Shown: positions 30,169 to 36,221 of the stretch, piece by piece
Layout of the letters: every line of letters begins with the position of its first letter
How positions within the stretch are numbered: the first letter of the stretch is position 1
NCBI GenBank assembly: GCA_964291215.2
Contig: OZ219791.1
Location: 1,664,001-1,728,000, forward strand
Reading direction: 5' to 3'
DNA length: 64,000 nucleotides
Source: Alphaproteobacteria bacterium
GTDB taxonomy: Bacteria > Pseudomonadota > Alphaproteobacteria > MPNO01 > UBA830
The notes under the pieces: generated by a model
Told to the model about the DNA's origin: nothing
The model's database searches: none
Seen by the model: only the letters and a program-made list of their open reading frames with translations
Translations under genes and position numbers: made by a program

Positions 30169-32505
30169 CTACTCCGCGGCGATCTGTCCCCCTGTTTCCG
30201 CTGCCTGTTCCCGGAGCGCCTTGAGCACCTTGGGCGGTGACATCGGATGATCGCGAAGGCGCACGCCGACGGCGTGGTAGATCGCATTCGAGATTGCCGC
30301 GAGTGGCGGAATGATCGGCACTTCGCCGATGCCGCGTACGCCGTAGGGATGATCCGGGTTGGGGACCTCGACGATTTCCGTGTTGATGAACGGCACGTCG
30401 GATGCAACCGGCACCCGGTAATCGAGGAACCCGGGATTCTCGAGCACGCCCTTCTCGTTGTAGATGTACTCCTCGTTCAGGGCGAAGCCGATGCCCTGAA
30501 CTGCGCCGCCCTGGAATTGGCCCTCGATGAACTCGGGGAACACGGCCTCGCCGGCATCCTGGACGATAGTGTAGCGGAGGACCTTGACGGCGCCGGTCCT
30601 GCGATCGACCTCGACATCGACGATATGGGTTCCGAAACCGGGGCCGCCCTGGGCGACATTGATCTCGGCATGTCCGGCGATGGTGCCGCCGAACCATGAG
30701 GCTTGCCGCGCGAGTTCCGCGACCGTCATCGGCGCGAAGTCGCCGACATTGGCGCCGGCCGGCCGCGCCGCGCCGTTCTCCCAGACCACCTGGTCGGGGT
30801 CGACCTCCCACTTGCGGGCGGCGATCTCGCACATGCGGGCGATAGCGTCCCGCGACGCCTTGACGGCGGCCATGCTGCCCGCGGCCGTGCCGCGGCTTCC
30901 TGCCGTCATGAAGTTGAAGCCGAGCGCGCTGGTGTCGCCTGACATCGTCCGCACCTTTTCGAAGGGGATGCCCAGCTCCTCGGCCACGATCATGGCGAGC
31001 GCGGCGCGCCCGCCTCCGGTGACGTCGACGGTGCCGAAGATCAGGCTCGCGGTTCCGTCCTCGCCGATATTGAGCGTTGCCGAGGTTTCGGCGCCGAGCG
31101 TGAACCAGAAGCCCGATGCGATGCCGCGCCCCTGGTCGGGTCCGAGTCTCTCCTGCATGTGCGGATGGGCCCTGGCGCGCTCCAGCGTCTGGATGAAGCC
31201 GATCGTGCCGAGCTTGGGCCCGAAATGCGTCTGGGTGCCTTCCTTGGCCGCATTCTTCAGGCGGAACTCAAGCGGGTCGATGCCGAGCTCTTCGGCAATC
31301 TCGTCGATCACCGTCTCGACGCCGAAGGCGACCATCGGCGCACCGGGCGCGCGATAGGCCGCGACCTTGGGCCGGTTGGTGGTCACGTCGTGGCCGACCA
31401 CCAGCACGTTCTCAAGATCGTAGCGCGTGAAGACGGTGATGGTGGCGAGCGGCAGCGATGAGCCGGCATAGGCGCCTGACTGGTAGTTGAGTTCGGCCTG
31501 TGCCGCGGTGATGCGGCCGTCCCTTGTCGCGCCCATCTTGATCTTGACGTTGGTCCCGGAGGTCGGGCCGGTGGAACGGAAGACCTCGTCCCGGGTCATC
31601 GCAATGCCCACCGGGCGATTCGCCTTGCGCGAAAGCACGACCGCCAGCGGTTCGAGATACACGTTGTTCTTGCCGCCGAAGCCGCCGCCGAGCTCGGCGG
31701 CCGTGACCTTGACCTTCGACATGTCCATCTCGAGGAGCTTGGCGATCTGGGCGCGGAACACGAAGTGGCCCTGGGTCGAGGTCCACACCTCCGCGTAGCC
31801 GCCCTCGGTGTAGTTCGCGACGCAGGCCTGCGGCTCGATATAGCCCTGGTGGACTGGTTTCGTGTTGTACTCTTGCTCGACGATGACGTCAGCCTCGGCA
31901 AAGCCCTTCTCGATGTCACCTAGCTTGCTCTCCATGCGCGCGGCGATGTTCGACGGCTTTTTCGGCTTGGGCTCGACGCCGCGCGTGAACTGGTCGGCGT
32001 GCAGGACCGGTGCGTCGGGTTTCATCGCCTCGACGACATCGATGACGTGCGGCAGCACCTTGTACTTGACCTTGATCAGCTTCAACGCCTTGCGCGCCAC
32101 AGCCTCGCTGGTGGCTGCGACCGCGGCCACCGGGTGGCCGTCATAGAGCACGTTTTCTCGTGCCATCATGTTCCGCGTCACGTCGCGGAAGTTGACCATG
32201 AGTTCGCCGGAGGCTGCGTGCTCGACCTCCATGTCCGGGAAATCGTCGCGCGTGACGACCGCCTTTACGCCGGGAAGCTTTTCTGCCTTCGAGGTGTCGA
32301 TCGAGACAACGTCGGCGCGGGCATGCGGGCTCCGCAGGACCTTGCCGACGAGCTGCCCGGGCAGACGGATATCGGCGGCGTAGCGGGCGCGGCCGGTGAC
32401 CTTGTCGACGGCGTCGCCGCGGTCTACCGGGTTCGTGCCAACGACCTTCAGGTCCTTCTTCTCGTAGGGGATCTTGGTGGCGAACGGTGACGGAGGGCGT
32501 CCCAT
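30169..32505 (-). CDS. Xanthine dehydrogenase family molybdopterin-binding large subunit
   Basis: KVTGRARY, HQGYIEP, GGGFGGK, AYRAPG, GQFQGG, GIGEVP. Confidence 0.92.
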   Translation of the reverse strand: MGRPPSPFATKIPYEKKDLKVVGTNPVDRGDAVDKVTGRARYAADIRLPGQLVGKVLRSPHARADVVSIDTSKAEKLPGVKAVVTRDDFPDMEVEHAASGELMVNFRDVTRNMMARENVLYDGHPVAAVAATSEAVARKALKLIKVKYKVLPHVIDVVEAMKPDAPVLHADQFTRGVEPKPKKPSNIAARMESKLGDIEKGFAEADVIVEQEYNTKPVHQGYIEPQACVANYTEGGYAEVWTSTQGHFVFRAQIAKLLEMDMSKVKVTAAELGGGFGGKNNVYLEPLAVVLSRKANRPVGIAMTRDEVFRSTGPTSGTNVKIKMGATRDGRITAAQAELNYQSGAYAGSSLPLATITVFTRYDLENVLVVGHDVTTNRPKVAAYRAPGAPMVAFGVETVIDEIAEELGIDPLEFRLKNAAKEGTQTHFGPKLGTIGFIQTLERARAHPHMQERLGPDQGRGIASGFWFTLGAETSATLNIGEDGTASLIFGTVDVTGGGRAALAMIVAEELGIPFEKVRTMSGDTSALGFNFMTAGSRGTAAGSMAAVKASRDAIARMCEIAARKWEVDPDQVVWENGAARPAGANVGDFAPMTVAELARQASWFGGTIAGHAEINVAQGGPGFGTHIVDVEVDRRTGAVKVLRYTIVQDAGEAVFPEFIEGQFQGGAVQGIGFALNEEYIYNEKGVLENPGFLDYRVPVASDVPFINTEIVEVPNPDHPYGVRGIGEVPIIPPLAAISNAIYHAVGVRLRDHPMSPPKVLKALREQAAETGGQIAAE

Positions 32506-32525
32506 GGCTCGGTCCTTTCCTATTC

Positions 32526-33008
32526 CTATTTCGCGCCAGCGCGCATTTCGCGGGCGGCATCCTGAACCGCCTCGACAACCTTGTGATACCCGGTGCAGCG
32601 GCAGAGATTGCCCGCAAGTCCATAGCGGATCTCCTCCTCGGTCGGGTCCGGGTTCTCGTCGAGCAGCGCCTTCGAGGCGATGAGGAGACCGGGTGTACAG
32701 ATGCCGCACTGCAACGCAACGTGATCGATGAATTTTTGCTGCAGCGGGTGCAACCCGTCTCCCGACGCCATTCCCTCGATGGTTTCCACGGTCTTGCCGT
32801 CGGCTTCTAGCCCCAGCATCAGACACGAGCAGACCAGAACACCGTCGACGATGACGCTGCAGGCGCCGCAGTCGCCAGTGGCGCAGCCTTCCTTGGTTCC
32901 AGTCATGTCGAGTTCGTCGCGCAACACGTCCAGAAGCGTTTGGGTGGTGTCGCAGAGAACCTCGGTCTCGTCGCCGTTGATGGTGGCGGTTACATGGTGT
33001 CTGGCCAT
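32526..33008 (-). CDS. Xanthine dehydrogenase family 2Fe-2S small subunit
   Basis: GCATGDCGACS, QCGICTPG, GNLCRCTGY. Confidence 0.95.
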   Translation of the reverse strand: MARHHVTATINGDETEVLCDTTQTLLDVLRDELDMTGTKEGCATGDCGACSVIVDGVLVCSCLMLGLEADGKTVETIEGMASGDGLHPLQQKFIDHVALQCGICTPGLLIASKALLDENPDPTEEEIRYGLAGNLCRCTGYHKVVEAVQDAAREMRAGAK

Positions 33009-33877
33009 TACGATCGTGCCCTTTCAAGCGCTATTGCCGCTGCGCGCTGCGCCAGCACGCCGGCAACCTCAATGCGGTATTCGACGGTTCCCCGTTTGTC
33101 GTCTATCGGCTTGCAGGCGGCGCGGGCCGCCGCCGCGAGCTTGTCCATCGCCGCCTCGCCGACTGGTGTGCCAATCAGCGCCTTGGCGGCGACATTCACG
33201 AGCAGGGGGGTTGGGGCGACGGCGCCCAGAGAGACCCGTGCCGCAGTGCAGATGCCCTTCCGGTCCAGGGTCAGGTTGACGGCGGCGCCGACCACGGCAA
33301 TGTCCATTTCGGTGCGCGGCGTGAAGCGGAGATAGGCATCGCCCGACCTTGGCGGACGCTTCGGAAGGTCGAACGCGACGACCACCTCGCCGGGTGCCAG
33401 CGATGTCTTGCCGGGGCCGCGGATAACTTTCTCGACCGGAGCCTCACGCTCTCCGCGTGGCCCGGCGATGACGGCCGTTGCGCCCGCGGCGATCAGCGGC
33501 GGTACGCTGTCGGCGGCCGGCGAAGCGTTGCACAGATTGCCGCCGATGGTCGCTCGTCCGCGCACCTGGAGCGAGCCGATGAGGCGCACCCCGTCCATGA
33601 TGCCGGGCCATGCGGCGTTGAAGCCGGCATGGTTCATGAGCTCCTTGCCTGTAACCGCTGCCCCGAAACGCCAAGCGTTTCCCTTGCGCGAGATCTTGCG
33701 CATCTCGGGGATGTTTTTCACGTCGATGAGGAGATCGGGCTCGACGATGTCGGCATGCATCTGGACGAGCACATCGGTGCCGCCGGCCAGAAATCGGGTC
33801 ACCCCGGGTTTGTTGCTGCCTCTGCCCCGGGCCAGCGCGACGGCGTCGTCTAGGGACGTAGGTGCTTCATACTGCAT
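33008..33877 (-). CDS. Xanthine dehydrogenase family FAD-binding medium subunit
   Basis: LAGGTD, ATIGGNLCNASPAAD, PIDDKRGT.EYR. Confidence 0.93.
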   Translation of the reverse strand: MQYEAPTSLDDAVALARGRGSNKPGVTRFLAGGTDVLVQMHADIVEPDLLIDVKNIPEMRKISRKGNAWRFGAAVTGKELMNHAGFNAAWPGIMDGVRLIGSLQVRGRATIGGNLCNASPAADSVPPLIAAGATAVIAGPRGEREAPVEKVIRGPGKTSLAPGEVVVAFDLPKRPPRSGDAYLRFTPRTEMDIAVVGAAVNLTLDRKGICTAARVSLGAVAPTPLLVNVAAKALIGTPVGEAAMDKLAAAARAACKPIDDKRGTVEYRIEVAGVLAQRAAAIALERARS

Positions 33878-33924
33878 ATCGGTTCCTTGCTCTGATGGGC
33901 GGTGCAGTTCTGCGGAGACGGTGG

Positions 33925-34641
33925 TCAGACAACGGCGCTCTGCTCGCCGATCGCGGTCGCGTACTTGTAGATGTCATCATACATCAGATGTTGGATGTCG
34001 AGCATCTGGCGCACGGTCTTGAGCACGAGCCTGCGGTCCTCCTCGGTCGTGGCAAACTGGTCAAGGAGTTTCCGGCCGACATCGGAATGCTCCTCGTCGG
34101 CGCTGTCATGGATGATCCAGTAGGCGACGGCCTCTTCGTCGAGGCCAAACTGTTCCTGGAGTTTCCGGGCAATGCGGATATAGAGCCCCGGAATGGCGGC
34201 CTCTCCAGCAAGCATGTGCGCGGACACGCCTTCGAGGAAGCTCTTCGAGCATATGTGCGCGAAATAGGCCTGGAAGGCGACGACACCGGCGCAATAGGGC
34301 GGGTCGTACATTTCCTCGGGCTTGAGGCCCATGCCCCTGGCGTAGTTCAGATAGAGGCGGTGATGCGAGATGCCGCCCGACATCAGCCGCCCCGTGGCCT
34401 CCTCATAGGCGACCTCGGCGATCATCTCCCGCCATGCCGGATCGGGACAGATGACGTAGAGATTGCCGTGGTAGTTGTGGTTGTGGAGCGGGATGCCGCC
34501 ATGCTGCTGGCAGATGTAGCGCGACTGCTCCCAGTTCCACGTGCCCTCGACCATCCCCGTCCACAACGGATGGCCGTACATCGGGAGCTCCCTGTGGATA
34601 TCGGCGATGCGGTCGAGAACCCCTTGGGTCGTCAAGGCCAT
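33925..34641 (-). CDS. Heme-oxygenase-like diiron (PqqC/TenA/CADD-type) redox enzyme
   Basis: YEEATG...SHHRLY, E.AIP..Y, YWIIHDSADEEH. Confidence 0.75.
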   Translation of the reverse strand: MALTTQGVLDRIADIHRELPMYGHPLWTGMVEGTWNWEQSRYICQQHGGIPLHNHNYHGNLYVICPDPAWREMIAEVAYEEATGRLMSGGISHHRLYLNYARGMGLKPEEMYDPPYCAGVVAFQAYFAHICSKSFLEGVSAHMLAGEAAIPGLYIRIARKLQEQFGLDEEAVAYWIIHDSADEEHSDVGRKLLDQFATTEEDRRLVLKTVRQMLDIQHLMYDDIYKYATAIGEQSAVV

Positions 34642-34860
34642 GGTCGCCCCTTCCTTATCGGCTCGGTTCGCGAATATACCAGATTTGGGTTGTCGGACTA
34701 GCGCCCCTTGGCAGCCCTCAGGACCATTTTTCCAGCCGAGTTCGCGGTCCCGGAGCAAATCGGGCTGACAGGAGGTGCTCGGAGCTCACCGGGTGCGGCT
34801 CTGCGGGATCCTGGGAAGGTTTGGAGTTGTCGGAGCGTTTTTCGCTCGGATGGCCGGCGC

Positions 34861-34942: not shown

Positions 34943-34986
34943 GTATCTACTCACCCTTACTGATCACGAATCGTTTTTCCTGACGG

Positions 34987-35771
34987 CGTTTGCTGTGAAA
35001 CATTTCTGATCCCTCCGATGTCTTTTGTTGAACAGGACACGAGCGACCTGTCGGTCAGGCGCATGCCTGACCGCCTTGTGGTGGTGCTGGCTGACGCCTG
35101 TTGACGAATCTTGGACCTTTCCGGCTGCCTCGCGTCCATGGTCATCAAGGGTCTGGTTCGTTCAGGCGTCAGGGATGGGCGTCTGCCCCTGTCAAGCCGC
35201 GATCCTGGTGGTCCACGTTGAGGGATCAACGCCATGTTTCTTCAACATTCGGACCCGGCGTGGGCCATTGCGTTGGACCATCAGGCGCTCGTAGGTCTCG
35301 GGGTCGCGGTAGACCTCACCGGTGATGCGCATGGTATAGATGATGCGCAGCAGTTTGTGAGCGACTGCGACATGGCCACCGCTTGTGAACCAGGCTGCGC
35401 CAAGTGCACCGTCGCCGTGATCTGCATCTTGTGAACGTCAAGACCCGCGGCGCGGGCATGGACGACATTGAGGGCATCAACACTCTGCATCAGGCTTCTT
35501 CCGGTTGTGGGGCAGGTGGAGGCGGAAACCAGCGGATAGCAGGGTCGCGAACCCCAAGAGGCTCGTGCTCCATTTTGCTGTTCGTCCTCGGCCAGGCCGG
35601 GTACATCGCGGGGTGCGGTGCTGCTGGTCGGGCACAGTTTGGAAACGGGCTCGATGGCGCCAAAATGCAAGCGAACTCGTCACCCACCTCCACCTGCTCG
35701 CATTATCGTGCACCAACACGCCGGATCAACGCACTCGTCCAACGGCCACAACAGGCTCACATTTCATGGCG
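34987..35771 (-). mobile_element. Internally deleted IS110-family element with both non-coding ends
   Basis: N-terminus MQSVDALNVVHARAAGLDVHK (ATG 35490) joined near 35370 to C-terminus VAVAHKLLRIIY...YRDP...RMLKKHG (stop 35192); GGCG at both junctions (34985-34988, 35768-35771). Confidence 0.82.
35495..35765 (-). ncRNA. Candidate IS110 bridge RNA
   Basis: 11-bp closing stem 35512-35522/35687-35697 with internal hairpins; 35607-35615 equals flank 35770-35778; 35574-35581 equals element end 34989-34996. Confidence 0.6.
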
Positions 35772-35869
35772 CGGGGTGAGCAGACACGCCGACGTTCATG
35801 ACTGTTTGGATCAGGCCTCTTCTCTTGCCACCCACTCGCTGCCGATGACCTGTGCGGGCTTCGATTGGC

Positions 35870-36221
35870 GTTCGCCCGGCGGCATCTTCCGGTACCCCGC
35901 CGCCCAGCGGGCGACCTTGCGTTTGATGCGTTGACGGGTCCGTGCGGTTCCGCCCGGCATCGCCGGCCGAGTGCATCCGCCCGGGCTCGAAGTCGACCCA
36001 CACTACCTCGGTGCGAACCCGGGTCGTCACCTGCACGACGATGCGGCGCCAGTCCCGCAGCAGGTCGTCGTACAACGTCGAGGGGTGGCCCGAGACCATT
36101 ACCTGACACGGCAGCCCCTTGAGCAGTTCAAGGAGTTCGACATGGTCGGCTTCGGTGCAGTCGTGGCGGTACCGCTGGCCCGACCGGCGGGTCGCCTGCA
36201 AGTACGGCGGGTCGCTGTATA
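35870..36221 (-). pseudogene. DNA adenine methyltransferase 3' fragment (second copy)
   Basis: VYSDPPYLQATRRSGQRYRHDCTEADHVELLELLKGLPCQVMVSGHP; frameshifted tail. Confidence 0.75.

Follow-up and report, generated by a model that had tools for sequence, protein, structure and literature searches.

A decayed IS110 element whose predicted bridge RNA may recognize a folded single strand as its donor

A mini-IS110 element in a 64,000-nucleotide stretch of an Alphaproteobacteria genome (contig OZ219791.1, positions 1,664,001 to 1,728,000; hereafter the window, whose numbering is used unless a contig is named) carries a candidate bridge RNA, which raises the question of what DNA such an RNA would read. 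A sequence-only reading of the window held that the 9-mer CACCCCGCG in this RNA is a left-target guide aimed at the terminal inverted repeats (IRs) of IS66-type elements. Much of what that reading described is in place. An 11-bp stem closes the RNA (35687-35697/35512-35522), CACCCCGCG at 35607-35615 is identical to 35770-35778, ACAGCAAA at 35574-35581 is identical to the right end of the element, and GTATCTACTCACCC is an IS66-type IR, several copies of which lie about 150 bp from PF03050 matches. Because the 9-mer is not rare (3 occurrences in the window versus 2.28 expected) and the RNA of the window copy, taken by itself, is no more stably folded than shuffled sequences (z = -0.38), data from the wider family were needed. 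Relatives came from several searches, two of which contributed the best 80 of 589 and the best 80 of 162 matches, with 8 named plasmid records added. They fall into a close clade of approximately 50-88% identity and a distant group of 36-42% identity; MAGs of Alphaproteobacteria, Gammaproteobacteria, and Acidobacteriota are among the record titles of the close clade.

The boundaries of the element were established from empty copies of the repeat in which it resides. Ten such copies in the same genome (G000; 6.15 Mb in two contigs) align across the junction and place the left end at 35807 with AA as the core; they have the same length at the core, with seven carrying G for the first A and three gapped there. 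The whole element thus spans 34992-35807 on the minus strand, or 816 bp including one AA core. The left core is at 35806-35807, and the flank beyond it ends in TCC (35808-35810), which constitutes the left target. Empty host repeats together with a family alignment of loci place the right core at 34990-34991 and the right end, comprising an inverted-repeat arm (TTTCA) and the left donor (CAGC), at 34992-35003 (all minus strand). AA is present at both junctions with no longer target duplication, a trait of the IS110 family. Contigs from three runs of one study (X1, X2, and X3) bear on the same boundary: two X1 contigs skip 816 bp (34987 to 35804, with at most 3 bases of play), although these may represent paralogous repeats rather than alleles, and two X2 contigs match the window only as far as 35809. 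The host repeat (34943-34989, plus strand) has an IS66-type IR at its end (34943-34956), and the insertion point is 47 bp inside this repeat, not at the IR.

These boundaries differ from those of the sequence-only reading, which had placed the left junction at a CG core. Since the empty repeats and the contig joint put the boundary about 30 nt further out, CTCACCCCG, previously taken as the left flank, falls inside the element, and the circle junction that had been proposed is likewise wrong: the joint would be at AA, with the extra 30-odd bases included. With the left boundary wrong, the IS66-targeting reading fails. The motif CACCCCG lies approximately 30 nt inside the left end, and it does so also in multi-copy relatives and miniature derivatives (MITEs) with unrelated flanks. 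The tabulation of flanks that had been suggested as a check gave the outcome that the sequence-only reading had itself named as refuting; 12 loci of one relative (L044-L053, L066, and L091) keep the motif while their flanks, 32 nt further out, differ. Ten family left ends occur in the same genome (two long copies, six MITEs of 208-210 bp, one lone end, and the window copy), and all ten have the motif 25-31 nt inside a left end with differing flanks. IS66-type elements are very dense in this genome, with 71 PF03050 matches (E <= 1e-6), many containing stops, and 426 IR-like sites. None of the 425 real IR-like sites carries the element; the family end motif follows one of the 426, which is the window's own look-alike. 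Targeting of IRs as by IS4321/IS5075 is therefore absent here, given these 0 of 425 sites and the ten left ends with differing flanks. In favor of IS66 targeting, 13 of 15 bases agree between the IR and the left end of the window copy, which sits within an IS66-ended repeat. Against this, MITEs of another genome (G002) have the same 12 bases within their own ends, and the relatives' flanks, the empty repeats, the contig joint, and the left ends of the same genome all oppose it. The proposal that the element is programmed for IS66 ends is refuted, and we assign almost no probability to the 9-mer being a left-target guide for them. What survives is a variant bridge system that a wide IS110 subgroup has in common.

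The element is a non-autonomous IS110 derivative that kept both ends and lost its recombinase, as had been recognized from the sequence. The gene is cut to an N-terminal stub of 39 aa (35374-35490, minus strand) and a C-terminal stub of 55 aa in another frame that runs to the stop codon (35192-35368, minus strand). Neither stub was matched by Pfam; they align to the full-length relative L019 at 68% and 52% identity. An intact paralogue (L015, at G000 C1:480856; 59% identical to L019) carries both the DEDD domain (PF01548) and PF02371 (Transposase_20). That this paralogue could mobilize the window copy is plausible. The window copy is decayed. Contigs of all three runs carry the family letters at 35130, and contigs also carry them at the first RNA helix (35674 and 35675) and at 35761 in the repeat arm. 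A shorter derivative is represented by one X2 contig, in which 35173 is connected directly to 35663 and sites B and C (described below) are both kept. A 1197-nt X3 contig matches 35371-35590 and then continues as the undeleted gene would. A second long paralogue, L002 (G000 C1:883369-886576), has its RNA interrupted by the insertion of an element that, from its protein, looks like IS256; two MITEs follow L002, the first of which is joined to it head to tail at the AA core.

The 5' non-coding region is a bridge-RNA-type RNA, as the sequence-only reading held, and that signal comes from family covariation (111 loci in 35 clusters, with permutation across clusters). The predicted RNA spans 35512-35697 (minus strand), and its guides lie upstream of the recombinase gene. 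In an alignment of 38 sequences the consensus fold has 26 pairs, 19 of which changed on both sides, and leaves four strands open; the stems that close the loops are conserved across the 38 aligned RNAs. An Rfam search returned one chance snoRNA match only (E = 0.92). Just upstream of the RNA is a putative sigma-70-like promoter (35702-35729, minus strand), the sole match in 34950-35850 where 0.1 would be expected.

Two of the four open strands behave as ordinary guides, and a third is a candidate for one. The candidate right-target guide (35662-35671, minus strand) is weak: its match to the right flank is 3.88 versus 3.68 +/- 0.13 (p = 0.066, 20 clusters), although the match is clear by eye in some elements, and the helix before it carries two changes from the family motif in the window copy (35674 and 35675). 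The left-target guide (35637-35645, minus strand; TTTCC-AA-AC) comprises flank, AA core, and the first 2 nt of the element. It matches the flank at positions -4 to -1 in 16.3, 25, 25.8, and 30.2 of 32 clusters (z = 4.7-8.0), and the same strand also tracks the first bases of the element. The left-donor guide (35573-35582, minus strand) matches CAGC plus AA of the right end, consistent with the earlier assignment of ACAGCAA as a donor guide; at each of the four positions compared, it agrees with the right end in 25.5-26 of 26 clusters (z = 4.7-5.9). Targeting is loose, involving about 4 nt of left flank plus AA, and the site predicted by the window copy's guides occurs 109 times in the genome. 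In genome G004, two near-identical elements (L018 and L022) have left-target guides that differ, each matching its own flank, an instance of natural reprogramming.

The fourth open strand, here termed guide B (35606-35614, minus strand), occupies the fourth guide slot and shares a CG...YG frame with the three guides above. The consensus fold leaves it unpaired, and an RNA hairpin (35583-35605, minus strand) separates it there from the left-donor guide. Its match is an internal one of the same sense, site B (35770-35777, minus strand), which lies 25-33 nt inside the left end across the family and had been taken for target flank. Guide B tracks site B at position +5 (27 of 32 clusters versus 9.4 expected, with disagreement in the other 5) and at +6 (19.8 versus 8.8), and does not at +7. 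Among 32,296 RNA-DNA pairs compared all against all, the +5 pair ranks second (z = 7.0, against a 99.9th percentile of 3.7). In that comparison no guide tracks the core-adjacent left end (+2 to +17; best z = 3.8 versus the 99.9th percentile of 3.7), and no conventional right-donor guide, which would be on the opposite strand and adjacent to the core, was found. A partner for guide B within the RNA itself was also sought, and the best candidate (21 of 34 versus 14 expected) was unconvincing. Collectively, covariation across the family shows the target loop to read about 4 nt of left flank plus AA, and the donor loop to consist of the right-end guide and the guide to site B.

In Bacillota, Actinomycetota, and Betaproteobacteria, the sequences of guide B and site B have changed in step and are quite unlike those of the close clade. 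When each guide was compared with its own left end, the match was 7.2 of 9 versus 5.9 when permuted, and own-sequence controls gave 4.2-4.6. The corresponding z values are 11.6 (43 clusters at 80%), 9.9 (30 clusters), 5.7 (12), and 4.7 (9), counts that overstate independence, since the clusters include a few near-duplicates whose proteins are broken (L195/L196 and L122/L138). With rules widened from a stricter form that had accepted 24 loci, 148 of 199 loci could be parsed automatically and 51 could not. On a 48-row tree the guide changed 9 times at +5, the site 11 times, and the joint state 13 times, with 7 changes shared; tests on independent pairs could not reach significance because there were fewer than 6 pairs. 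In the close clade, CCCCG is nearly invariant. Inversion between site B and the right end was considered and rejected; one such pattern, searched in five genomes, had a single match, at the place expected for the normal right end of a copy already known, and a second pattern had no match in the window's own genome.

The left end has a constant layout around site B. Its first 8 nt (35798-35805, minus strand) pair with no guide except through the 2-nt extension of the left-target guide. These are followed by a DNA hairpin (35778-35797, minus strand) that is imperfect in the window copy, then by site B, and then by the internal arm of a sub-terminal inverted repeat (TGAAA; 35761-35766, minus strand). 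Among 42 representatives (L017, L184, and L043 were dropped as mis-anchored), the left-end stem scored 3.86 of 5 versus 3.00 +/- 0.10 for shuffled sequences, which reached this score in 0 of 2000 trials. The stem starts 7-10 nt after the core in all representatives and at 8 nt in 23 of 42, a narrow range that in part reflects the restriction to six start offsets, and it ends just before site B. A full grid of offsets has a single ridge at the register of the hairpin. The hairpin is in register with both of its neighbors. Many hairpins of the close clade contain mismatches, and whole left ends fold no better than shuffled sequences. The inverted-repeat arm begins 10-15 nt past the start of site B, or about 40 nt inside the left end, and pairs with its own right end (6.9 pairs versus 4.5 +/- 0.2 permuted, 37 elements). 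The repeat varies in sequence yet stays complementary. Rebuilt circle junctions close the inverted repeat with P > 0.5 in 23-24 of 37 elements; the lowest-energy fold of the window copy's own junction leaves it unclosed.

MITEs indicate which of these parts are retained when the remainder of the element is lost. A 65-bp MITE consisting of left end, 11 nt, and right end was present at 6 of 10 loci fetched (of 40 matches) from genome G078 (L229, L234, L245, L250, L252, and L254). Its interior is a perfect 11-bp hairpin, and its flanks match the left-target guide of the helper. The 65-bp MITE is probably the minimal donor. In G002 (L200-L226), 12 of 15 loci fetched (of 29 left-end matches) are MITEs of 230-247 bp, and a search of that genome with one query identified no helper at E <= 1e-60.

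An inverted copy of the guide B/site B sequence, here termed site C (35128-35134, minus strand, with one mismatch at 35130), is present in the right end. In the close clade, 24 of 26 elements have the motif at a distance of 100-136 nt from the right core, compared with 9, 1, and 3 of 26 in other distance intervals. It lies in a hairpin loop by a fixed-register stem score (3.56 versus 2.66 at 101 control sites); stem length in free register is no longer than that of controls (4.36 versus 4.45). Site C tracks guide B (18 of 28 versus 8.6 expected), with several anchors, including that of the window, picked by hand. Pairing between sites B and C was rejected as the main link, being weaker (15.7 of 26) than that of either site with guide B. 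The site is kept in all six MITEs of the window's genome and in all 12 parsed MITEs of G002, and it is absent from the 65-bp MITE and from the distant group. Site C looks accessory.

In integron attC sites and in CTX-phage attP, a folded single strand is one recombination partner and one strand is exchanged; these systems use tyrosine recombinases and no guide RNA. Comparison of the sequences inclines us to the interpretation that the bridge RNA of this decayed, non-autonomous IS110 likewise recognizes a single, folded strand of the element's DNA as donor and not a plain double helix. A helper recombinase would copy one strand out as a circle, and the circle junction would take up a fold with a stem, a bubble, and a cap, built from the inverted repeat and the hairpin. 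Site B would then face the 8-nt end, with the core held in the bubble between them, such that the two donor guides could pair on opposite arms and on opposite sides of the core, reproducing the IS621 geometry on one strand. With site B lacking an AA to lie opposite the core, exchange would be limited to one strand, leaving replication to complete the insertion. Both donor guides are same-sense and so read the same strand, and the match between guide B and site B stops at +6, thereby covering the 7 nt expected to lie opposite the unpaired end. The left-target guide's 2-nt extension may fit the handshake logic of IS621 on the strand that both donor guides read. The 65-bp MITE keeps only the parts of the proposed folded donor: ends, hairpin, site B, and repeat. 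A folded single-strand donor also fits because single-stranded circles have been reported for IS621 (10.64898/2026.08.31.748434) and top-strand insertion for CazIS110-1 (10.1101/2025.10.25.684509). Several observations count against it. No circle joint was detected in the three contig sets, and neither strand was preferred (G-T versus A-C pairs, 11 versus 7; bottom strand lower in energy in 22 of 37). When the matching palindrome of ISPpu9 was mutated, minicircles were still detected by PCR (PMC12288879). The mismatched hairpins of the close clade, the ordinary folding of whole left ends, the unclosed repeat at the window copy's own junction, the underpowered tree tests, the 5 clusters with disagreement at +5, and the 51 unparsed loci also weigh on this side, and a folded donor does not account for site C.

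The same covariation of guide B, site B, and the hairpin would be expected if guide B paired with site B in double-stranded DNA, with the hairpin extruded locally or the DNA looped into a U-turn or distal tether, and with both strands exchanged as in IS621. The lack of strand asymmetry agrees with such pairing, as does the aid that a target stem-loop gives ISPpu10 in plasmid assays (10.64898/2026.03.19.712850). However, this explanation does not account for an inverted repeat that varies freely yet stays complementary, for the tight spacing on either side of site B, or for the perfect 11-bp hairpin interior of the 65-bp MITE, and we consider it rather unlikely.

A somewhat more doubtful alternative is that sites B and C are regulatory or docking sites and that neither takes part in recombination; a complex on these sites would repress the element's own promoter, or site C in the 3' UTR would pair with guide B such that the unprocessed RNA is inactive. 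Site C is suggestive in this regard, being in a hairpin loop, in place in 24 of 26 elements, tracking guide B, and able to pair beyond it, and site B is about 40 nt upstream of the promoter candidate. Yet MITEs without RNA or gene retain site B, even at 65 bp, and the donor loop would otherwise be without a partner for the left end. A regulatory role may apply to site C alone. That the match between guide B and site B reflects a DNA motif read by protein, or shared ancestry, instead of RNA-DNA pairing seems very improbable. The near-invariance of CCCCG in the close clade would suit this explanation, and the tree-based pair tests are underpowered, but the match persists across unrelated sequences in distant lineages and ranks with the accepted guides in the all-against-all scan.

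The family resembles several known systems and differs from each of them. IS621 and ISCro4 (PMC11208160, PMC11208158; PDB 8wt6, 9t56) share with it the DEDD and Transposase_20 domains of the intact paralogue, a left-end RNA that has a target loop and a donor loop, a 2-nt core, and handshake guides that the 2-nt guide extensions resemble. They differ in that only a C-terminal stretch of the recombinase aligns (E = 4.5e-13), in that the core is CT there and AA or AG here, and in that the right-target guide seems to be the first in order here. Whereas the donor guides of IS621 (PMC11208158) pair beside the core, on opposite strands and on either side, those described here are same-sense and one of them matches a site 25-33 nt inside the element. 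Members of the IS1111 group, including IS4321/IS5075 (PMC11187229), share sub-terminal inverted repeats (about 7 pairs here), a top-strand target match preceding the bottom-strand match, and a multi-loop donor domain; unlike in that group, the RNA here is upstream rather than downstream of the gene, the protein is about 415 aa, and the left repeat arm is about 40 nt inside.

ISPpu9 and MITEPpu9 of Pseudomonas putida have an AG core, a conserved 43-bp left 'A box' in which 8 nt precede a GCCC-N4-GGGC hairpin, as in the present family, and a short right box (PMC12288879). MITEPpu9 moved in trans and was found in tandem behind its parent, comparable to the arrangement behind L002 (PMC12288879). 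In contrast to the present family, the available text on ISPpu9 assigns no guide to the interior of the A box, and ISPpu9 targets REP sites specifically, whereas targeting in the clade examined here is loose (PMC12288879). ISArsp3 of Arthrobacter sp. FB24 (NC_008538; L289), at 34% identity, has the same layout by eye, with core AG, 8 nt, a hairpin, a 6-nt match to the fourth guide, and an inverted repeat; it differs in having a short right end. A literature search whose scope mostly excluded subscription journals yielded no description of a donor guide directed to an internal site.

By extension, we tentatively propose, at close to but somewhat short of even chances, that a large IS110 subgroup with recombinases of approximately 400-420 aa in Bacillota, Actinomycetota, Proteobacteria, and Acidobacteriota uses an RNA-programmed, attC-like folded single-strand donor with exchange of one strand, that the 65-base unit is a complete donor, and that the inverted site in the right end of one clade is a built-in anti-guide. 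Whether IS110 circles are single- or double-stranded is disputed in papers from 2025-26. Because the guide RNA appears to be written for a folded single strand, the question of strandedness could be tested with short oligonucleotides and compensatory mutations. Boundary and guide calls restricted to core-adjacent bases will misread this subgroup, as occurred in the sequence-only reading. If the 65-base unit is indeed a complete donor, then any single-stranded cargo between the repeat arms would be insertable; bridge editors that accept single-stranded cargo could follow, with the natural 65-bp minimal donor as a starting point.

Several further features of the family and the locus were noted. 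Full-length elements form head-to-tail arrays in several genomes (L047/L048/L091, L235/L239, L251, and L264-L268). A second copy of the host repeat, at G000 C1:252348-252413, keeps only the last 22 bp of the window element's right end; this piece is cut off by an IS66-type IR and its flank is identical to that of the window copy, so that the two perhaps represent one insertion copied along with the host repeat. The genome contains dozens of copies of a motif located at 35854-35900. An ORF remnant at 35764-36201 (minus strand) gave no match in a Pfam search; we take it to resemble the end of a DNA adenine methylase. Finally, 30169-34758 (minus strand) comprises a three-gene set that is molybdopterin dehydrogenase-like, with a TenA/PqqC-like gene upstream, all named by eye.
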